UHGV virus genome: UHGV-0135550
Reading direction: 5' to 3' (one strand)
Length of the DNA stretch: 18,754 nucleotides
From: a virus
Under the pieces are notes generated by a model, which saw only the letters and a program-made list of their open reading frames with translations, ran no database searches and was not told the DNA's origin. This document shows positions 2,868 through 14,206 of this stretch, one piece after another. A program made the position numbers and the translations under genes. Within the stretch, counting starts at the first letter, position 1; each line of letters starts with the position of its first letter.

Positions 2868-2942
<75 letters not shown>

Positions 2943-2945
2943 ATA

Positions 2946-3021
<76 letters not shown>

Positions 3022-3023
3022 AA

Positions 3024-3100
3024 TGGACCGTCACCGGAGACTCGAACCCCGCGCCATCAACTTCGAAGGCTGATGCTCTATCCGGATGAGCTAGTGACGG
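3024..3100 (-). tRNA. tRNA-Arg (anticodon UCG)
   Basis: Minus strand CCGTCACTAGCTCATCCGGATAGAGCATCAGCCTTCGAAGTTGATGGCGCGGGGTTCGAGTCTCCGGTGACGGTCCA: 7-bp acceptor stem (C1-G72), D-loop with GG, anticodon loop CTTCGAA, T-loop TTCGAGT, encoded CCA. Confidence 0.7.
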
Positions 3101-3327: not shown

Positions 3328-3396
3328 TACTTACCTTTCTCACACCAAATGTAAAAGCAATATTTTTTGATAATCCTGTTGTTTAAAGGGAATAGC

Positions 3397-6300
3397 ATGA
3401 AATCAATTGTACACTTATCCGACTTACACTTATCAGACTCAAAAAAATATGGTTTTCACTGGAAGAAAGCCAAAGAACTGGTCACAGTATTAGTTAATGA
3501 TATACATTCATTAAGTAAAGAAAACAACCTCCAGATAGATGCCATTTTTTTTACTGGGGATTTAACGTTTTCTGGAACCAAAGAGCAATTTCAACTATTT
3601 GATGAACATTTCCTCTCTCCACTTATTCAAAAGCTGAACATCAGTAAAAAAAACATTTTTATAACCCCAGGCAATCATGATGTGGACAGAAGTAAAGTTC
3701 ATCCACTTGAAAAACAACTGCGAACTGGTTCGGACGAAAATTTCATATCATCATACTTTGATATGATAAATAATGGAAAGTATTCATGGGAACGTCTCTA
3801 CGAGTACTGTGAATATAATAAAACAATATTAGATCATCATTCTGATGTTGAACAATCTGGACGCATGATTACATGCTTTAAAGTAACAAACAAATTATAC
3901 GTCGTTAGCGTAAATAGCGCATGGTTAGCTATGGATGATAATGATATTGGTAACTTACGAATTACCCAAAAGCAAATTGATTTTATCAATCGTGCCAAAA
4001 TACCTTCTGATGCAAAAATAATATTATTATGCCATCATCCTTTAGATTGGTTGAATAAGAATGATCGTGACATTTTTTCAACATTTATTGAAAAAAAAGT
4101 TTCAATGTTCTTTTTTGGTCATATGCATGATTTTAAACAAAAACTAGAATCTAGTTTTTGTGAAAACATCACCCTCTTTTTGCAAGCAGGAACTTTGGAT
4201 ACTAGTGAAAATGTATCAGGCTATTCATTAATAAATTTTAATAGTTCAAATGTCATATCAGACGGAAGAATTTTTTATAGAAAATATAATAAAGAAAAAA
4301 CATGCTATGAACCATGGGAAGAAAGAGGAAATGGTGGTGTTTTTGATTTCACCACTGAGAAAACTCTAACTTTTGACTCTGAAAAATTTGCAACATTATC
4401 TAATGAGATTCTAGAGAAAACTGATAAGGATTTATTAATTAACATTGGAATCTCTGATGAAAAGAAAAAAAGTCTAAGAACTCTATTTACTGAACCAAAT
4501 TTCCTTGAATTTGCTCTTGGAGCCATGCCTTCTATGGAGATTAAGTCCACACAAGAATTACTAGAAGGACGAAACAACCTTGTGATTGTAGGAAACCATA
4601 GCTCAGGTAAAACATCTCTTTTAAAATACCTATTCATTAAGAGTCTAGAAAAACAAGCCAGCAAAGACTTCAGTAACTTTGCATTTTTCTTAGATTTAAA
4701 TGCAATTGAATTAAATAGCTTAAATACAATTGTAAGCGCATTATGTACACAATATTTCAATGCAGATTCGACCACATCTTTTGAAGAAAAAATTAAAAAA
4801 ATGTTACATGAGGGAAGATGTGTTATATATATTGATAATCTGGACAATATAAATACAAAAGAACAATGTGTAATTTCTGATTTTTTTATAAAATTCAAAG
4901 AATGTAGATTTATCGTAACTGCTGGCTATAATAATTCAGATCTGGTAGTTAAAATATTATCAGATGAAAGTAAAGCTAAATTTCATGCAATTGCTATAGG
5001 TTCATTACGCAGATCTAATGTTCGCGATATTGTATCAAGATGGCACGACACAACATCACAAAATATAATATATAAAGAAATCACGCGAACAATCAACAAT
5101 TCGCAACTTCCTCATAATTATTTTACATACTCAATGCTTTTAGCTATTTATGAAGTTGATCATGACGTTAAAGGAATATTAAGTGAGTCTGATATTATAG
5201 AAAACTTCATAGAAATTTTGCTTCGTAAACATTTTATGGATACTCCGCCTAATAAGCCACAATTTAAAGAACTTCGACATTTTCTTGGATATTTAGGATT
5301 TACATTATTCAAAAACAAATGTAATTTTATTTCAAATAATGAACTTCTGCAGACTGCAATAATTTTCAATAGAGATACCATGCATGATTATCAAGTAGAA
5401 GACTATATAAAACCATTAAAAGAATGTGGAATATTGAAAGAAGAGCTATGTAATGTGATTTTCTCGCAGCCTTGCTTTTTATACTATTCCATCGCTTATT
5501 TCATGAAGCATAACGAAGAGCTAAAGAAAGAAATTTTATCCGATAATAATTACCTACATCTACATAAAGTTATTGAATACTATTCATCGCAGAACTCATC
5601 TAGTCTTGATTTATTATACTTACTTAAAAAGAAGACTAATGCAATCAAATCTTCTTTATCTGAACGAATGCTCGAAGATAAGGGAATAAATATTGAAGAT
5701 ATAAAGATTGAAGACTCTAATACTTTCTCTATTTTAGATATGGTATCAACCCAAGATGATTTCGAAAAAAAGATAGAATCACTCCGTGCAGATAGAGAAA
5801 AAGATGACGCGCGACTAGATGAATTATCACCTTTATCTGATAAAGATAAAAAAGCTAATATATCAAATGTTAGAGCTGAAGGTAATAATAATCTGTTACA
5901 TGATCTTATTAACACTTTATCTCTTTATGCAAGGGTATTCCGTAGTACTGAATTATCTATGGAAAGAGAAAATATATTAAATATATTTAATGACCTTGTA
6001 AAGGGTTATGTTTTTTACATGAAAGCGTCACTAGTACTAATGGATGATTCATTTGTTCTTCCAGTAATACTCCCTGCATTAGAAAAGAAAATGCAAGAGG
6101 ATAAATTAACCGATAACGAAAGGCAACGAGTTTTTGAAATGTTTAAACTAGTATTGTCTTTAGTTCGCTCAATGATCCCAAATAACATACAGTTTATTAT
6201 GAGCAATGACTTAAGCTCGAAAAAACCACGTATTGCAAACATTATTACTGAATCAAAAGACTCAAATAGCAATCCTGTAGAAAAGGCTATTTTAACTTTC

Positions 6301-6549
6301 ACCTTAATGGATATTAAAGATGAAATGGTTATACAATTAGCTAACGATTTAGCAAAGATACAAAACAAAGTTGTTCAAGAATCTCTTTTCTTCAAGATTA
6401 ATCAAATTATAACAAGTAACTATGATTTAAAAAGAACTGAAGAAGAAGCATTGAAAGAGTTAGCAAAAAACATTGGCATTAAAAGAAAATTAATTCTCAC
6501 ACCCAAGATTAGTGATGCCTTTAATACGTTAAACCGCATAGGACATTAA
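3397..6549 (+). CDS. Large multidomain protein: N-terminal calcineurin-like metallophosphoesterase, central NACHT/STAND-like P-loop NTPase, C-terminal helical domain; candidate antiphage defense protein
   Basis: Metallophosphoesterase motifs DxH (D9-L-H11), GD (54-55), GNHD (92-95), HH (213-214), GHMH (241-244); Walker A GNHSSGKT (399-406); Walker B-like VIYIDNLD (about 476-483) followed by FIVTAG; ATG at 3397 with AAAGGGA RBS (TTG at 3367 is the ORF-track start). Confidence 0.8.
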   Translation: MKSIVHLSDLHLSDSKKYGFHWKKAKELVTVLVNDIHSLSKENNLQIDAIFFTGDLTFSGTKEQFQLFDEHFLSPLIQKLNISKKNIFITPGNHDVDRSKVHPLEKQLRTGSDENFISSYFDMINNGKYSWERLYEYCEYNKTILDHHSDVEQSGRMITCFKVTNKLYVVSVNSAWLAMDDNDIGNLRITQKQIDFINRAKIPSDAKIILLCHHPLDWLNKNDRDIFSTFIEKKVSMFFFGHMHDFKQKLESSFCENITLFLQAGTLDTSENVSGYSLINFNSSNVISDGRIFYRKYNKEKTCYEPWEERGNGGVFDFTTEKTLTFDSEKFATLSNEILEKTDKDLLINIGISDEKKKSLRTLFTEPNFLEFALGAMPSMEIKSTQELLEGRNNLVIVGNHSSGKTSLLKYLFIKSLEKQASKDFSNFAFFLDLNAIELNSLNTIVSALCTQYFNADSTTSFEEKIKKMLHEGRCVIYIDNLDNINTKEQCVISDFFIKFKECRFIVTAGYNNSDLVVKILSDESKAKFHAIAIGSLRRSNVRDIVSRWHDTTSQNIIYKEITRTINNSQLPHNYFTYSMLLAIYEVDHDVKGILSESDIIENFIEILLRKHFMDTPPNKPQFKELRHFLGYLGFTLFKNKCNFISNNELLQTAIIFNRDTMHDYQVEDYIKPLKECGILKEELCNVIFSQPCFLYYSIAYFMKHNEELKKEILSDNNYLHLHKVIEYYSSQNSSSLDLLYLLKKKTNAIKSSLSERMLEDKGINIEDIKIEDSNTFSILDMVSTQDDFEKKIESLRADREKDDARLDELSPLSDKDKKANISNVRAEGNNNLLHDLINTLSLYARVFRSTELSMERENILNIFNDLVKGYVFYMKASLVLMDDSFVLPVILPALEKKMQEDKLTDNERQRVFEMFKLVLSLVRSMIPNNIQFIMSNDLSSKKPRIANIITESKDSNSNPVEKAILTFTLMDIKDEMVIQLANDLAKIQNKVVQESLFFKINQIITSNYDLKRTEEEALKELAKNIGIKRKLILTPKISDAFNTLNRIGH

Positions 6550-6832: not shown

Positions 6833-6907
6833 GCACACTCCTTAGTAAAATATAGAAATAAAAGACAAATCACTTATAAATGTCATGTTAAAAAAATTCT
6901 CATCATG

Positions 6908-6936
6908 ATTATTGATGAGTGATTTTATATTATCAA
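6908..6936 (-). promoter_or_regulatory. Candidate sigma70 promoter downstream of Q (possible late promoter PR'-like, or promoter of the small ORF)
   Basis: On the minus strand: -35 TTGATA (6931-6936), 17-bp spacer, -10 AATAAT (6908-6913); AT-rich context so chance matches are likely. Confidence 0.3.
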
Positions 6937-7063: not shown

Positions 7064-7408
7064 CTATTTTATGAAATAAAAACACCCTTCAATAAAACCT
7101 AAAGCAGTTTGCAATTCCTTTCTAATCGTACCGTCCGAACATTTTCGCCTCTTCGCAATAGTTCTAAGCGAAATACCAATAACAAAATGAGCTATAATTA
7201 GCTCATATTCCTCTGGTTTATACTTACACAGGCGGGCAACACAGCCGTCTATCATGATGCCTTCATCATCATCACACTGAAGGCGTATTTTTTTACCATG
7301 AGGTAAAAGCCCCTTAAAGCCTGCTGCTATCGGCTGCCAGTCCACACCACTGTTATCTGCTGCAGCCCATGCTCCCCAGCGGTCCAAAACTTCATACATA
7401 TCACGCAT
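7064..7408 (-). CDS. Late-gene antitermination protein Q (small Q family, non-lambda type)
   Basis: N-terminal LDRWGAWAA motif and Cys-rich core (QCDDDEGIMIDGC ... KCSDG) as I recall for phage antiterminator Q family; ATG at 7406-7408 with GGAGAAA RBS (TTG at 7423 is the ORF-track start). Confidence 0.75.
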   Translation of the reverse strand: MRDMYEVLDRWGAWAAADNSGVDWQPIAAGFKGLLPHGKKIRLQCDDDEGIMIDGCVARLCKYKPEEYELIIAHFVIGISLRTIAKRRKCSDGTIRKELQTALGFIEGCFYFIK

Positions 7409-7425
7409 CAACTTTCTCCACAAAA

Positions 7426-8421
7426 TCAGGCCAGCACACCAATTGCCAGTGCACGATCGATAAAACGAAATATCAGCTCCAGCTGGGAGCCATACTTCTC
7501 TTCAAATGCCACGGTATCCGCATGCAGCTCGTCGTGATGCTTTCTGCACAAAGGCAACACAAAGAGGTCATGCGCTTTTGTACCCATTCCCCCCTGACCG
7601 TGGCCTATCAGGTGGTGGGGATCATCAGCAAGCTTTCCACAACATGCACACGGCTGTGTCTTAACCCAGCGCGTGTACTTTTCATTAACCCAACGGCGAC
7701 GTTTGGGGCGTAACATAAAAGACTCCGGCGACTCCGGATCCACTTCCAGCGACAGCACCTTTTTCGCTTTATCCTGGATGATGCTGGTGGCAGGAACCGA
7801 AGGAACAAGGTCACTTTCCCGGGTGACAGACGGCACAATAGGCTTCGGTAATCTCAGTGCCTTACGGGCTGCACTTTCCGGTAAGGCATCCGCCAGGTCA
7901 TTACGAACCAGCCACCAGCACAGTTCCGGCATTGTCACAACGTGACTATCATCAAAACCGAGATCACGGCGCACAACAGACAACACCCAGCGGGCACAGT
8001 TATCCGTTGCCATTGATTCCAGCCGTTCCGTGAACTGATCGCGCAGCTGGTTATCACAGTGCCAGCACAGACGGATTGCGCCCGGAGCGTGTCGCATTGT
8101 GGTCATGTTCTCGCTGTGCCAGTCGGAATGAGGCCACTGACAGCCCTTTTCACGAAGTAACCAGCTTTCAAGACATTCCACGCCACCAGCACGACGGATC
8201 ACTGCCTCATTGCGGAACACGGCCCGAACGGCAGGATCATCCGCCAGCGGTTGTGATGCCGCGGGAACGGCACCACTGGCGAAAGATGAATAACGTTCCG
8301 GCTCAGGCTCCAGCAGTACACGCCCCTGCATAAACAGGGGCATCAGCTCTGAACCTGGTCTGAACAATACGATCCCCATACGCGGGGCAATTTCAGGGGT
8401 CAGTAGTGCTCTCACGGTCAC
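7426..8421 (-). CDS. DUF968-like phage protein with C-terminal Cys/His-rich (HNH-like) motif; start uncertain
   Basis: C-terminal CACCGKLADDPHHLIGHGQGG ... LCRKHHDELH; nin-region position; GTG start overlapping the KilA-N stop, no clean RBS. Confidence 0.55.
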   Translation of the reverse strand: MTVRALLTPEIAPRMGIVLFRPGSELMPLFMQGRVLLEPEPERYSSFASGAVPAASQPLADDPAVRAVFRNEAVIRRAGGVECLESWLLREKGCQWPHSDWHSENMTTMRHAPGAIRLCWHCDNQLRDQFTERLESMATDNCARWVLSVVRRDLGFDDSHVVTMPELCWWLVRNDLADALPESAARKALRLPKPIVPSVTRESDLVPSVPATSIIQDKAKKVLSLEVDPESPESFMLRPKRRRWVNEKYTRWVKTQPCACCGKLADDPHHLIGHGQGGMGTKAHDLFVLPLCRKHHDELHADTVAFEEKYGSQLELIFRFIDRALAIGVLA

Positions 8422-8422
8422 C

Positions 8423-9232
8423 TCAATGAACGGTATCGAGCAGCTTTAACAGCTCAGGGAATCGGGATTCGAAGAAATGCGGCTGCGTCTCGCGCGGATT
8501 TGCGGGACTGGTGATGTTCTTGCCGAACATGCAGCCTTTCGCTGTCAGCGACCAGAATTTTTTGATGTTGTTAATCGCGGTACGGCTGTATCGTTCGCGT
8601 TGTTCAACGATCCCCAGCTTCACCATCTGGTGATATGCCTGATTAGCCGTCAGGCGGATACCATACTGCTTCAGCAGTGCACTCAGTGACAGCGTAGGAC
8701 GGCTTGAGCCATCGAGTGCATCAGCAGGAGCATCAATGGCATAGCGCGGTGCCAGATTCGGTAAGCCAACAGCCTCCTGAAGTTTCTGACAGGCTCCAAG
8801 CACTGATGAGTTAGACAGGTTTAATTCCCGGCGCATAAAGTCCAGCAGAATCACACCAGCCTGCATCTTGTCAGCAGCCTGCCCGGATAATTTTTCCGGT
8901 GCGCTGGTTACCATATCGAAAGTACGGATCACCTTCAGATGGAATGACGGGCTGATCCACATTGCATAGGCATACACCAGTTCCTTGCAGACATACGTTC
9001 CCCGTTCATTTCCCCCATGAATCACACTCACCGGGTCAACACCCAAATTCTGGGTGTTGGTCAATTCATGAACAAGTTCAACAGTTTGTTGGCTGGAAAG
9101 AAACTTTCCCGGCTCCTTGGTTCTGGCATTTGCACCAGATGCTACTGCTGCGCGATGCAGATCGTTCAGGCTGTAACGCCCATAAGCATCACGACGAACT
9201 TCAATACCATCAATGACCATCAGATTATTCAT
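8423..9232 (-). CDS. KilA-N domain protein
   Basis: N-terminal MVIDGIEVRRDAYGRYSLNDLHRAA resembles the KilA-N DNA-binding domain; ATG at 9230-9232 with AGGAGA RBS. Confidence 0.65.
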   Translation of the reverse strand: MNNLMVIDGIEVRRDAYGRYSLNDLHRAAVASGANARTKEPGKFLSSQQTVELVHELTNTQNLGVDPVSVIHGGNERGTYVCKELVYAYAMWISPSFHLKVIRTFDMVTSAPEKLSGQAADKMQAGVILLDFMRRELNLSNSSVLGACQKLQEAVGLPNLAPRYAIDAPADALDGSSRPTLSLSALLKQYGIRLTANQAYHQMVKLGIVEQRERYSRTAINNIKKFWSLTAKGCMFGKNITSPANPRETQPHFFESRFPELLKLLDTVH

Positions 9233-9251: not shown

Positions 9252-9641
9252 TCAGGCGGCTGCACCCGCCGGTTTCTCATACTTACTGATAGTGATCTCG
9301 ACCTTCCCTTTCGGGATAACCGGTCCCCACTCCACCAGCATTCTTTTCACCTGTCTGTCGTCTTCCCACACACCCGCGTGGGTCAGGGCGTCAAACAGAG
9401 CCTTGTTATAGTTGTCCAGATCGCGGATCCGGTTATCCGGAGGAAACAACACGATCTCCACTGAAGCAGGTGCCGACGTTGGTTTCGGCAGACGACGTAA
9501 CTGCTCAACTATTGCTGCGCACGCCGCGCTCTGAAATTTTCGCCCCGCCTCGCTTATCAGGCTCTTACCAGCAAATGCCCCTTTGTTGGGGTGTCGCCAG
9601 TACGTGTTCACGCTGGGCGGAAAAGGCAGGATCAGCTTCAT
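9252..9641 (-). CDS. rusA: Holliday-junction resolvase RusA
   Basis: 129 aa with PPSVNTYW, RDLDNYNKALFDALTHAGVWEDDRQV matching the RusA family pattern; ATGA overlap with the upstream stop. Confidence 0.85.
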   Translation of the reverse strand: MKLILPFPPSVNTYWRHPNKGAFAGKSLISEAGRKFQSAACAAIVEQLRRLPKPTSAPASVEIVLFPPDNRIRDLDNYNKALFDALTHAGVWEDDRQVKRMLVEWGPVIPKGKVEITISKYEKPAGAAA

Positions 9642-9964
9642 ACTTTCAGGCCCCTCTCATGTAACCAGTGGGCTGCACGCAGCCTGGCGTTTTCCTCACC
9701 GGCAAGCAGTGAGCGGATAATCCCGACCGCCTCGCTGTCGTCGTCCTTCACCACGGTATGAAGCGTGATCCCCCGGGCCACACCACGCTTTATCGTGATG
9801 ACGCCTTTTTTCTCCAGTGCGCGAAGATGCTCCACCGCTGCATTCACTGAACGGTATCCCAGCATGGTTGCCACCTCCTGATTGGTTGGCGGGAAGCCAC
9901 GTTCTTTCTGATAAGAAATCAGCATATCCAGCACCTGCTGCTGGCATTGAGTTAACGTCATCAT
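9638..9964 (-). CDS. LexA-like N-terminal DNA-binding domain protein lacking the S24 peptidase domain
   Basis: 108 aa; QQQVLDMLISYQKERGFPPTNQEVATMLGYRSVNAAVEHLRALEKKGVI parallels the LexA winged-helix domain; no Ser/Lys peptidase region follows. Confidence 0.6.
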   Translation of the reverse strand: MMTLTQCQQQVLDMLISYQKERGFPPTNQEVATMLGYRSVNAAVEHLRALEKKGVITIKRGVARGITLHTVVKDDDSEAVGIIRSLLAGEENARLRAAHWLHERGLKV

Positions 9965-10614
9965 GCCGCCATCTCCCTGACCAGTTTTTCCGCCTGCTGG
10001 CGAACCTGCACCAGAAAGGCTTCACCACATGCCTCAAGTTCATCGCGCCCGATGTAGCTGATTGCCGGTCCCTTCCAGGTCTTGTCGAAAACAGCAATAG
10101 CACCAGCGAAGAAAGCGCCTGTCGGCACCTGCTTCTCATCCTTCGGGATAAACCAGGCAGGCAGTTCAAAACCAATACGCCCGCGAATAAAAGCAATATG
10201 GTCCGCATCTTCCGGCCACCACACTTCGCTGGTGGCAGCTTTGATCAGGAAAACATAGCGCCCACCCTTATCACGCATGGCACTGGCATGTTTCATGATG
10301 TAACGCATGCCGGTGATGTATTGCCCCTCATGCTGACTGGCGCGGCTGTATGGGGGATTGCCAAAGGCAGCACCTTTAAGCTCCGCAAGACGTTCTGACC
10401 AGTCATGCGCCAGCGCGTTGTCTTCCGCCGTGTAATACGCGGCACATTTGGCGTTATCACCGTCAGTGAACAGATCCAGAACAAACGGACCAAACAAGGT
10501 GTTAATTCCCCAGAAAATGTTGTCCGGCGTGCGCCACTGATCGCCCACTTCCTTCAGTTCATGGGCTGGTTTGTTCCGCAGTTCTACCAGCGCCTGGCAA
10601 TATTTATTACTCAT
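9961..10614 (-). CDS. Phage Dam-like DNA N6-adenine methyltransferase
   Basis: NPPY catalytic motif (FGNPPYSRAS); ATG at 10612-10614 (ORF-track start at 10659 is an upstream extension). Confidence 0.75.
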   Translation of the reverse strand: MSNKYCQALVELRNKPAHELKEVGDQWRTPDNIFWGINTLFGPFVLDLFTDGDNAKCAAYYTAEDNALAHDWSERLAELKGAAFGNPPYSRASQHEGQYITGMRYIMKHASAMRDKGGRYVFLIKAATSEVWWPEDADHIAFIRGRIGFELPAWFIPKDEKQVPTGAFFAGAIAVFDKTWKGPAISYIGRDELEACGEAFLVQVRQQAEKLVREMAA

Positions 10615-10706
10615 TAAGCCCCCACGTAAAAAGCATCCGCAATGTCTCCGGAAGTACACCCCGGATGGGCTTCAATGAATTTCTGAACTTCATTCAAAAG
10701 ACTCAT
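10614..10706 (-). CDS. Possible 30-aa micro-ORF translationally coupled to the methyltransferase
   Basis: ATG at 10704-10706, two nt after the upstream gene stop, GGGGGTGA just 5' of it; stop TAA overlaps the methyltransferase ATG (TAATG). Product MSLLNEVQKFIEAHPGCTSGDIADAFYVGA. Confidence 0.25.
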   Translation of the reverse strand: MSLLNEVQKFIEAHPGCTSGDIADAFYVGA

Positions 10707-10708
10707 GA

Positions 10709-11515
10709 TCACCCCCTGAATCCTTCCGGGATCTGGCTGTAGTCCACGTTGTCGTAACTGGCTTTGAAGTACGGGTCCTCGCGTCTGACTGCAGATACCG
10801 CAGGAACTTCCCAGGATTCTTCGAAATGACGATCCGGGCCAAAGAACGTGACAGCCTGTTTCACAAATTGTGTGCCGCTGTTACCCATCGCAGATACCCA
10901 GCCCGCGTAGCGTTTCACACCTTCCAGCATGGTTTCGGGGTTTACCCCCTCATTCAAACGGGCTTTCCAGGCTTTGAAGGCTGCAGATTTTGAATTGCCA
11001 CCAGCACGTTTGGGATAGGCCAGCCATGCCTGCTCAAACTCCGGAGAGTATTCCGGTCGGTTTGAACGAACTCGCACAGACTCATCAGCAGATGCACCAA
11101 CAGCTATTGGTTCATTGACTGGTTCAAAAGAGTGACTGGTTCTGGGTGAATCTCCTGCACTACCCCCTGGTGCAACTCCTGCACTACCTGGTGAATTTGC
11201 TGCACCAGATAGTGAATTATTTGCACTACCCCCTAGTGAATCTCCTGCACCATCCAGATGAAGGAGATAGATATTACTTGAGTTACCTTTTTCACCTTTC
11301 CGGGTGACTTTTTTTACCAGCCCGGACTCACAAAGGGCCGCAATATGATTCATCACAGAACGTTTGCTAATCTCGCACTGGTCAGCAATATGCTGGTAGC
11401 TGGGCCAGCACTCACCCTGATCGCTGGCATTATCAGCCAGCTTGATCAGAACCAGTTTTCGCAATGGATTACCCACTCGAATTTTCATCGCTTTAACCAT
11501 CAGCTCCATACTCAT
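10709..11515 (-). CDS. Replication initiator (O-like): N-terminal HTH domain, low-complexity linker encoded by the iterons, DnaT-like C-terminal domain
   Basis: N-terminal KLVLIKLADNASDQGECWPSYQHIADQCEISKRSVMNHIAALCESGLV (HTH); C-terminal EFEQAWLAYPKR ... SQIPEGFRG resembles the E. coli DnaT C-terminus as I recall it; GGAGGTG RBS; ATGA overlap with upstream gene. Confidence 0.7.
   Translation of the reverse strand: MSMELMVKAMKIRVGNPLRKLVLIKLADNASDQGECWPSYQHIADQCEISKRSVMNHIAALCESGLVKKVTRKGEKGNSSNIYLLHLDGAGDSLGGSANNSLSGAANSPGSAGVAPGGSAGDSPRTSHSFEPVNEPIAVGASADESVRVRSNRPEYSPEFEQAWLAYPKRAGGNSKSAAFKAWKARLNEGVNPETMLEGVKRYAGWVSAMGNSGTQFVKQAVTFFGPDRHFEESWEVPAVSAVRREDPYFKASYDNVDYSQIPEGFRG
11145..11255. 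repeat. Five tandem imperfect 21-24 bp direct repeats inside the O-like gene (candidate origin iterons)
   Basis: GTGAATCTCCTGCACTACCCCCT / GGTGCAACTCCTGCACTACCT / GGTGAATTTGCTGCACCAGAT / AGTGAATTATTTGCACTACCCCCT / AGTGAATCTCCTGCACCATCC, in frame, encoding the Gly/Ser/Ala/Pro-rich linker. Confidence 0.6.
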
Positions 11516-11748: not shown

Positions 11749-12577
11749 GACGATGCCCTCCGCTGATATTCAGGAGACGGTGAATATGAAAATTAGCCTT
11801 ATCCGCCAAACGGATACGTTCAGCCTGCAAGTTAAGAAGGGTTTCTACCAGAACCTGATGCGCCTGCGGATCCGAAAGAGTTACCTTGCGCAGAGCACGT
11901 AGTGCAGTTGTTACATAACTGAGTTTATGTAAGTCTTCATCATTCAGACGAGTGAGGGCTGGGACAGTAGCCATGATGGCAGCCTCCGTATGCAATGGAT
12001 AACTTCCACCACCGGAAACGCCAATTTCGCTGGTGGTGAACTGAGCAGGGTTGGCGTAACCGGCGCATACGGAAACCGGCGCACCTTTCGGTGCCCCCAC
12101 CCAGCCCACCATAATTTGGGTATAGCTGAGTTGTAGCAACAAAAAAGACGCTAACGCGCCAATTGTCGCCGTATGCAATTCCAGGACGCCAATCCCGGCA
12201 CCCGCTTTATAAGGTGCCTGAACAGTGTAACGTCCCGGAATGGCAGAATCAATGTGCTGGTGGTCCTTCACACTCAACAAAATCACGCCTGAATTTCCAC
12301 AAAGGACTAAAGCACTCATGCGGGTAGTCTTTGCGAAGATAGATAACGCGCTGTGTTTCTGGCTCCCAACGAATAACATGGACATAAAGCCCTCTTCCGT
12401 CACGAAACCAGCGGTTAAGTTCCTGCACAACTCGCCCCCCACAGTCAGGTAAAGTTCTCTGTGGTTACTTACAGCCAGGTGATTTGGTAATCTGCATTCA
12501 TGCCGTAACAACAGGTGTGCAGCGACACTGACCACCAGCTGTTGCGACAAACGGTTATTTGCCGTTAAACTGTTCAT
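11741..12577 (-). CDS. Hypothetical protein (278 aa) in the early-right operon
   Basis: ATG at 12575-12577 with GGAGAAA RBS; ATGA overlap with the upstream gene stop and 8-nt overlap with the downstream gene; no recognisable motif. Confidence 0.45.
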   Translation of the reverse strand: MNSLTANNRLSQQLVVSVAAHLLLRHECRLPNHLAVSNHRELYLTVGGELCRNLTAGFVTEEGFMSMLFVGSQKHSALSIFAKTTRMSALVLCGNSGVILLSVKDHQHIDSAIPGRYTVQAPYKAGAGIGVLELHTATIGALASFLLLQLSYTQIMVGWVGAPKGAPVSVCAGYANPAQFTTSEIGVSGGGSYPLHTEAAIMATVPALTRLNDEDLHKLSYVTTALRALRKVTLSDPQAHQVLVETLLNLQAERIRLADKANFHIHRLLNISGGHRHA

Positions 12578-13369: not shown

Positions 13370-13459
13370 ACAATATGTACCTCCGGTATACATATTACAT
13401 GATTTAGATGAACCTTCAAGGTACTTGTACCTTATCGGTACAAAGGTTTTAATTTCTTT
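13370..13459. promoter_or_regulatory. Divergent immunity control region (PR-like / PRM-like promoters and operators)
   Basis: Operator-like ATGTAC-N7-ATACAT at 13375-13393; palindrome AGGTAC-TT-GTACCT at 13418-13431; candidate PRM -35 TTGTAC (13425-13430) and -10 TTTAAT (13448-13453) implying a near-leaderless CI mRNA. Confidence 0.5.
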
Positions 13460-14134
13460 ATGAAAACAGTCCATGACATCCGGCGGTCTAACGCCAGAAA
13501 ACTGAGAGATGGTGTTGGCGGGAATTCTTCCTTTGCCACCATGATTGATCGCGAGCCAACCCAGACCAGCAGGTTTATGGGAGATGGTGCTACTAAAAAT
13601 ATCGGTGACAGCATGGCGCGGCACATCGAAAAATGTTTCGACCTGCCTGTCGGATGGCTTGATCAAGAACACCAGACCACGAACATCACAAAAAAACCTG
13701 ATGTTTCAATCACTAACAAACAAATAACGTTAGTCCCTGTCATATCATGGGTACAGGCCGGAGCATGGAAAGAAGTTGGCTATTCTGAGGTTGATTTGAG
13801 CACAGCAGAAACTTACCCCTGCCCTGTACCCTGTGGCGAAATGACTTATATCTTGCGGGTGATTGGTGATTCAATGATTGATGAGTACCGCCCGGGAGAC
13901 ATGATTTTTGTTGATCCTGAAGTCCCTGCCTGCCACGGTGACGACGTTATTGCATTGATGCACGATACAGGCGAAACCACCTTCAAGCGGTTGATAGAAG
14001 ATGGAACACAGCGTTACCTCAAAGCATTAAACCCAAACTGGCCTGAACCTTACATTAAGATCAACGGTAATTGCTCTATAATTGGTACAGTGATTTTCTC
14101 AGGAAAACCAAGAAGATACATAATAAAGGCCTAA
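13460..14134 (+). CDS. CI-like repressor (HTH plus LexA/S24 peptidase-like C-terminal domain)
   Basis: N-terminal HTH-like region; C-terminal GDSMIDEYRPGDMIFVD ... TTFKRL consistent with an S24 autopeptidase Ser/Lys dyad; divergent from Cro-like gene. Confidence 0.8.
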   Translation: MKTVHDIRRSNARKLRDGVGGNSSFATMIDREPTQTSRFMGDGATKNIGDSMARHIEKCFDLPVGWLDQEHQTTNITKKPDVSITNKQITLVPVISWVQAGAWKEVGYSEVDLSTAETYPCPVPCGEMTYILRVIGDSMIDEYRPGDMIFVDPEVPACHGDDVIALMHDTGETTFKRLIEDGTQRYLKALNPNWPEPYIKINGNCSIIGTVIFSGKPRRYIIKA

Positions 14135-14172: not shown

Positions 14173-14206
14173 TTGACAATGTACCCATGAGATACATAAT
14201 GTATCT
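14173..14206 (+). promoter_or_regulatory. PL-like early-left promoter with overlapping operators
   Basis: Perfect -35 TTGACA (14173-14178), 16/17-bp spacer, -10 CATAAT/ATAATG (14195-14201); operator ATGTAC-N7-ATACAT (14179-14197) in the spacer; second palindrome AGATACAT-A-ATGTATCT (14190-14206) over the -10. Confidence 0.55.

Follow-up and report, generated by a model that had tools for sequence, protein, structure and literature searches.

LexN, a phage-encoded LexA-type DNA-binding domain without the S24 peptidase in the early operon of an SfV-like prophage

Described systems

The SOS response governs mutagenesis, persistence, prophage induction, and the release of Shiga toxin. In phage lambda, the early lytic operon yields Cro, a small DNA-binding protein that is insensitive to proteolysis and occupies the operators vacated by the cleaved repressor.

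In the literature, a single experimentally characterized phage protein that consists of a LexA-type DNA-binding domain alone was found: gp6 of the Bacillus thuringiensis tectivirus GIL01, a 66-aa "truncated homologue of LexA" (PMC6182141). Its target is a palindrome of its own, GaCACAnnTGTGaC, which overlaps the -35 element of the late promoter P3, and it activates transcription there (PMC6182141). The isolated amino-terminal domain of LexA (residues 1-84) is the other point of reference. This fragment is reported still to bind SOS boxes and repress to some extent, and ClpXP must clear it (PMC10584840).

A LexA-type domain in an SfV-like prophage

The stretch of DNA analyzed here (the window) comprises 18,754 nucleotides of UHGV virus genome UHGV-0135550. 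By gene content it is an SfV-like lambdoid E. coli prophage: integrase; a cI repressor that bears an S24 peptidase domain; a gene resembling CII; genes for replication; a nin region; the antiterminator Q; and lysis genes. On the minus strand, an open reading frame at 9638-9964 (ATG at 9964, stop at 9638) encodes a 108-aa protein of the SfV orf42/PHROG 362 family, given the working name LexN. It corresponds to a RefSeq coding sequence with matching coordinates, WP_000210181.1 ("LexA family transcriptional regulator"), in an E. coli locus that is 99.7% identical.

LexN residues 1-65 cover the entire PF01726 model (LexA_DNA_bind; E 6.4e-19, 67.9 bits against a cut-off of 23.7), and a phmmer search of PDB sequences retrieved the LexA DNA-binding domain 1lea (E 7e-16). 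Residues 1-69, aligned with E. coli LexA, are identical at 35 of 69 positions (51%). Two AlphaFold runs (pLDDT 82 and 84) predict helices at residues 6-22, 28-35, and 40-52, and wing strands at 56-58 and 66-68. Foldseek superimposes this model on chain 3jso_B, from a LexA-DNA crystal structure, with an rmsd of 1.0 Å over 67 residues at 51% identity. The winged helix-turn-helix thus delimited occupies codons 1-69 (9758-9964, minus strand).

The remainder of LexA is missing. No Pfam match to Peptidase_S24 (PF00717) was found in LexN, which ends at residue 108, and the model for full-length LexA, TIGR00498, aligns over its positions 1-91 of 203 only, scoring 70 bits against a cut-off of 111. Judged by the PF01726, 1lea, and 3jso matches together with the TIGR00498 shortfall, the similarity to LexA greatly exceeds what chance would produce, and the S24 part is genuinely missing. 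LexN consequently has neither the peptidase and dimerization domain of LexA nor its Ser119/Lys156 dyad, and therefore would not undergo RecA*-triggered self-cleavage.

A previous sequence-only reading had likened the 108-aa product to the LexA amino-terminal winged helix, remarked on the missing S24 portion, and placed the gene in a prophage. All three observations hold, and the alignment to LexA that it proposed finds the similarity significant. It overlooked both a conserved carboxyl-terminal hairpin and the fact that the family had already been catalogued. (A weak winged-helix match of LexN to a CARF model in PADLOC, E 4e-4, was dismissed as generic fold similarity.)

The recognition helix

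In LexA, DNA contacts have been reported for Ser39, Asn41, Ala42, Glu44, and Glu45 (PMC3091678). LexN retains four of these five, with S39, N41, A42, V44, and E45. Residue S39 and the recognition helix, SVNAAVEHLRALEK (codons 39-52; 9809-9850, minus strand), begin SVNAAVEHL, versus SPNAAEEHL in LexA. The wing residues R64, G65, and I66 also are common to the two proteins. Overall, the identical residues cluster in helix 3 (8/13) and the wing (10/17), with few in helix 1 (4/17). The differences include E44, which is V in LexN, and R28, which is N.

Relatives at 36-50% identity show the same pattern: S39, R64, G65, and I66 do not vary, and N41 hardly does. Position 44, however, is never Glu in the distant tail-bearing relatives examined (12 of 12; F, A, L, V, T, or Y instead), whereas it is Glu in 11 of 16 LexA-sized matches. 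Several other LexN clades carry SPNAAAEHL, a single change from LexA that keeps eight of nine helix residues. The most diverged helix, NAVLLHL, is that of a large Klebsiella-type clade. Positions 43-46 differ among LexN clades whose hosts have one common SOS box. Because the contact residues are mostly kept but E44 and R28 are changed, a CTGT-like half-site is a reasonable expectation from sequence for the clade to which LexN belongs, whereas identity with the SOS box is not assured.

GIL01 gp6 shares with LexN the phage-encoded LexA-type domain without S24 and expression early in the lytic cycle. It differs in its size, 66 aa without a tail, and in its recognition helix, SHKTAHRYL, which is unlike that of LexN. 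BLASTP returned no alignment between the two at E values up to 100, and direct homology was accordingly set aside; the 33% identity in a MAFFT alignment reflects only the shared fold. Because BLASTP similarity is absent and the recognition helices differ, LexN and gp6 look like independent captures, one by enterobacterial lambdoid phages and the other by a Gram-positive tectivirus.

The carboxyl-terminal hairpin

Behind a low-confidence linker (residues 71-75), AlphaFold predicts two further helices, residues 74-88 and 93-103, in a model with pTM 0.56. This helical hairpin (codons 74-103; 9656-9745, minus strand) is absent from LexA, and a Pfam search found no family matching the hairpin itself. 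It is kept in relatives down to 36-50% identity, with A97 and L101 invariant. Among 47 distinct alleles, pN/pS is 0.12 for the hairpin versus 0.02 for the winged helix. Presumably, this element of about 30 residues stands in place of S24 as a dimerization or partner-binding device.

In alignment, the first helix of the hairpin, VGIIRSLLAGEE, falls opposite the hinge and cleavage-site motif of LexA, LPLVGRVAAGEP. Within it, RSLLAG (codons 84-89; 9697-9714, minus strand), which E90-E91 extend to LLAGEE, aligns with VAA|GEP, such that A88-G89 of LexN lies opposite A84-G85 of LexA. LLAGEE looks like a vestige of the LexA hinge, and this alignment suggests descent from a lexA gene severed shortly past the cleavage site. 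The best explanation for the protein as a whole is that it descended from a gammaproteobacterial LexA winged-helix domain, in which S24 was replaced by the hairpin.

Cleavage in trans at A88-G89 was considered and rejected: the stretch is predicted to be helical, and the Ala-Gly pair is not kept in distant relatives. LexN has no catalytic domain in cis. The LexA 1-84 fragment, likewise a DNA-binding domain alone, is quickly cleared by ClpXP, which acts on a signal that cleavage exposes, whereas LexN has the added helical module. LexN ends in GLKV, versus the VAA end that LexA cleavage exposes, and this terminus is presumably not a ClpXP-type signal.

Family, distribution, and selection

LexN matches the PHROG 362 profile ("transcriptional repressor") from end to end (E 3.2e-59; residues 1-108 on profile positions 1-106 of 106), and its homologue in phage SfV is orf42. 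Genes 95-99% identical to LexN are present in SfV, SfII, SfIV, cdtI, mEp460, and many Stx2a and Stx2c phages, and the family appears as Pham 237 (pfam01726) in 15 Stx phages (PMC8136144). With a copy defined by at least 90% nucleotide identity, 2233 of 5426 complete E. coli genomes (41%) contain the gene, up to four copies per genome. The sequence family is thus already named and catalogued in databases, and very common. The literature yielded no functional study of the SfV orf42/PHROG 362 family. Functionally, its members are a kind with one characterized precedent, gp6.

Could this common gene nevertheless be a decaying, functionless remnant of a captured lexA? The resemblance to a truncated LexA, and the alignment of LLAGEE with the cleavage-site motif VAAGEP, are what such a relic might display. 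Overall pN/pS, however, is 0.05 across the 47 alleles, and LexN is under strong purifying selection. Moreover, even relatives as distant as 36% identity preserve both the length and the tail. The gene also persists in 41% of complete E. coli genomes, its frames intact and its start and stop codons coupled. The selection analysis effectively refutes decay, which we consider scarcely conceivable.

A separate architecture was noted among the related sequences. Five proteins of 140-350 aa (P0131, P0143, P0159, P0161, and P0148) contain two tandem LexA_DNA_bind domains without S24, an arrangement that would solve dimerization by duplication.

Genomic setting

LexN lies within a tightly packed set of minus-strand genes. 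Upstream is a Dam-type N6-adenine methyltransferase gene (9961-10614; PF05869, E 1e-45; RefSeq CDS), whose TGA stop overlaps the LexN ATG in the sequence ATGA at 9961-9964. Downstream is the gene for a RusA Holliday-junction resolvase (9252-9641; PF05866, E 1e-14), whose ATG overlaps the LexN stop in a second ATGA, at 9638-9641. The remainder of the packed operon (7064-9232), identified from Pfam matches and synteny, encodes a KilA-N protein (8423-9232), a DUF968/HNH-like protein (7426-8415), and the antiterminator Q (7064-7408). Because of the ATGA overlaps on both sides, and because no strong promoter-like site immediately precedes the gene, LexN belongs to the rightward (delayed-)early nin operon.

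The cI repressor gene is located elsewhere, on the plus strand (13460-14134), with a Peptidase_S24 match (PF00717, E 1.5e-26) and a placement equivalent to that of cI in SfV. Since the prophage has its own S24-bearing cI, LexN is not the immunity repressor. We infer that LexN is expressed after cI is inactivated. In contrast to host LexA, it is a phage-encoded protein from a lytic operon.

This arrangement is conserved. From the upstream gene through LexN to Q, gaps are at most 25 nt in the window and in seven of the seven relatives checked, and the gene upstream of LexN is a methyltransferase gene where one is present. In 36 of 37 diverse relatives, the three genes after LexN include DUF968 followed by a Q-type antiterminator. 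The Q type varies, and the LexN cassette combines with various Q types and immunity regions. LexN also sits between the replication genes and Q, within the nin region, in mEp390, a Klebsiella phage, Edwardsiella phage EPP-1, and 37 diverse viral contigs.

A neighborhood made up so constantly of DNA-metabolism genes admits a different role, mainly protein-protein or low-specificity DNA interaction: LexN might be an accessory to Dam, RusA, or the DUF968/HNH protein, or a modulator of LexA, RecA, or another repressor. The flexibly tethered hairpin (pTM 0.56, linker 71-75) could serve as a partner-binding module, and there is weak winged-helix similarity to replication-initiator and DnaD-like families. 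Those matches, however, all have E values above 0.005. The DNA-reading surface, moreover, is the best conserved part of the protein (S39, R64, G65, and I66 invariant, N41 nearly so), and pN/pS is lowest in the winged helix, at 0.02. We therefore rate a role of this sort as quite improbable. LexN is very probably a functional protein that binds DNA sequence-specifically, is insensitive to RecA, and is produced in the course of lytic development.

Operator searches in the window

If LexN is a sequence-specific DNA binder, where does it bind? The consensus CTGT-N8-ACAG, with at most one mismatch, has 10 matches in the window, where 5.8 ± 2.4 are expected, and none of these is an SOS box. A 20-bp SOS-box position weight matrix gave a best score of 8.7 in the window, whereas known boxes score 13-26 and the best sites of shuffled windows average 10.3; these scores are approximate, the matrix having been assembled from 16 SOS boxes. 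CTGT/ACAG dyads at spacings of 0-14 also occur in the window at chance level.

The sole perfect CTGT-N8-ACAG in the window (12459-12474) is inside the coding region of an Ash-family gene. It was rejected as a LexN site because it is allele-specific, occurring in 21 of 82 related loci; nearly all of the 61 loci without it carry LexN. The intergenic palindromes of the window include cI/Cro-type operators (13372-13443) and terminators, none attributable to LexN. The same is true of a hairpin in the pR' region (6899-6919) and of a palindrome at a pL-like promoter (14190-14206). No candidate for a gp6-like operator was found near pR' or elsewhere in the window.

These searches bear directly on a gp6-like alternative, in which LexN has come to recognize a palindrome specific to the phage and serves as repressor or activator of a phage promoter (around Q and pR', for example, or at a gene outside the window), leaving host SOS boxes unaffected. 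The precedent is concrete, since gp6 binds GaCACAnnTGTGaC and activates a late promoter (PMC6182141). Position 44 is always changed in the tail-bearing relatives examined, and positions 43-46 vary although the hosts' SOS box is one; the PHROG 362 label is merely the generic "transcriptional repressor"; and synteny with DUF968 and Q is conserved. However, the window supplies no candidate operator: its intergenic palindromes have other assignments or belong to the pR'-region hairpin, its CTGT/ACAG dyads are at chance level, and the perfect dyad at 12459 is allele-specific and absent from 61 of the 82 loci. The recognition helix of LexN, moreover, is far nearer to that of host LexA than is the gp6 helix. 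Finally, the cassette is without intergenic space and is paired with several Q types. Because it is packed in this way while Q and immunity region vary, there would be no place for a private operator to accompany the gene; the SOS boxes of the host, by contrast, do not change. A private operator is a real possibility, but a doubtful one.

Tentatively, and at something short of an even chance, LexN would instead bind LexA-box-like operators, as in the suggestion of the sequence-only reading that an uncleavable protein might occupy SOS boxes. Because the window is without an SOS box, such targets would lie outside it.

SOS boxes in related loci

In several lineages, the strong operator nearest to LexN is a canonical SOS box. 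Klebsiella-type viral contigs (L086-L112, L119, and L133-L212) contain a very strong canonical box 440-690 bp upstream of LexN, for example TACTGTTTATTTATACAGTA (L095, 4320-4339). The order of elements is: SOS box; DinI-family gene (PF06183); small gene (82-124 aa); LexN; 67-aa gene; DUF968; and Q. Among the 80 contigs fetched with that DinI, LexN is about 490 nt downstream of the dinI start in 79, and an SOS box is within 200 nt upstream of dinI in 71.

Gifsy phages have a LexA box beside dinI and a small antirepressor gene downstream (PMC3121763), and the small gene of the Klebsiella-type module occupies the position of the Gifsy antirepressor. Because this layout is the Gifsy layout, LexN in the Klebsiella-type clade is itself probably SOS-induced, under control of host LexA.

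Two other arrangements were found. In Edwardsiella phage EPP-1, the order is SOS box, a Rha/ANT antirepressor-like gene, and then a tail-less, 71-aa LexN, with the box at -761. In 11 of 80 close E. coli relatives among the matches listed, LexN and RusA are followed by an SOS box, at +764, and then by a KilA-N variant. Specifically, these loci (L003, 974-993, and 10 others) contain RusA, a hairpin, the SOS box TACTGTATTTATGAACAGTG, and a KilA-N protein different from that of the window. The variant is thus a LexA-controlled gene, 764 nt from the LexN start, whereas the KilA-N allele of the window (8423-9232) has no such box.

SfV itself contains a strong SOS box, CACTGTTTATTTTTACAGTA (L001, 2601-2620), at the 5' end of orf48, a gene that lies between Q and the lysis genes and encodes a DNA methyltransferase. 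Many relatives have similar boxes 3.9-5.3 kb downstream of LexN.

Recurrent adjacency to SOS boxes is suggestive, yet is not independent evidence that LexN binds them, for three reasons: LexA boxes are present in the same (nin) region of Gifsy prophages, where no LexN is described (PMC3121763); phage SPN3UB has the same dinI-C2 pair without LexN; and the clade with the best linkage has the most diverged recognition helix. Adjacency was therefore downgraded as evidence of binding. The Gifsy-type dinI/antirepressor layout accounts for the box in the Klebsiella-type contigs, whose helix reads NAVLLHL, and by this analogy regulation of a dinI-antirepressor-type module by host LexA is the better explanation for the linkage.

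A model for LexN function

The preferred model, binding to LexA-box-like operators, can be stated as a series of steps. LexN would be made only after the cleavable cI is destroyed, or after infection. It would dimerize through the hairpin and, given a recognition helix nearly the same as that of LexA (E44 alone is changed, to V), would recognize operators resembling LexA boxes, with CTGT-type half-sites. It might then serve as a damage-insensitive stand-in for LexA during lytic growth, re-repressing both host SOS genes and LexA-controlled genes of its own or co-resident prophages (such as antirepressors and dinI-type modules). Since the LexA amino-terminal domain alone is reported to bind SOS boxes and repress (PMC10584840), occupation of SOS boxes by such a protein is mechanistically credible.

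Five considerations weigh against SOS-box binding. First, the hairpin is unlike the S24 dimerization device, and half-site spacing may differ. Second, none of the 12 distant tail-bearing relatives examined retains E44, and R28 is replaced in LexN. Third, hosts of the NAVLLHL clade use the same SOS box, yet the helix there is strongly diverged. Fourth, GIL01 gp6 shows by analogy that a phage LexA DNA-binding domain can be retargeted and can activate (PMC6182141). Fifth, no SOS box is present in the window.

A stronger version of the preferred model draws on Cro, which resembles LexN in functional terms only, as a small, protease-insensitive DNA binder from an early-lytic operon; the two folds are unrelated. 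LexN, made once DNA damage had destroyed LexA, would then be to LexA what Cro is to cI, re-occupying SOS boxes genome-wide, shutting down the SOS response (recA, sulA, umuDC, and LexA-controlled toxins), and silencing the LexA-controlled antirepressors of rival prophages within one cell. We consider this stronger version unlikely.

The sequence family already is named in databases, and the value of LexN lies in its function. Prophages in about two-fifths of sequenced E. coli carry the gene, and the phages concerned include Stx2 phages and serotype-converting Shigella phages. A damage-insensitive LexA look-alike could alter the duration and strength of SOS gene expression, and could affect both which prophage wins in a polylysogen and how the cell responds to quinolones. 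If the Cro-like reading is true, the SOS dynamics of many natural strains would be shaped by a second, phage-encoded "LexA", because the gene is in 41% of complete E. coli genomes. If LexN has a private operator, it would be one more small phage regulator, of local interest.

Other features of the prophage

Between the methyltransferase gene upstream of LexN and the replication gene is a 32-aa open reading frame (10614-10712, minus strand). It looks like what is left of the amino-terminal part of a small winged-helix gene; some relatives have this gene intact (69 aa in locus L038). RefSeq annotates a pseudogene at this spot in strain EC71, and an SfV-type orf40 is missing from the window.

Just past the cI terminator, a near-consensus promoter (TTGACA, 16 nt, CATAAT; 14173-14206, plus strand) is overlapped by a perfect palindrome, AGATACATAATGTATCT. 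This is probably the leftward early promoter with its operator.

A cluster of three tRNA genes (2868-3100, minus strand), for Gly(tcc), Thr(tgt), and Arg(tcg), lies downstream of the late promoter region. On the opposite strand (3367-6549, plus), located between Q and the lysis genes, is a gene for a 1060-aa protein with calcineurin-like metallophosphoesterase and NACHT/STAND NTPase domains, which matches the PADLOC candidate defense model PDC-S60 (E 2e-97). From its domain content, it looks like an Avs-like anti-phage defense gene carried as prophage cargo.
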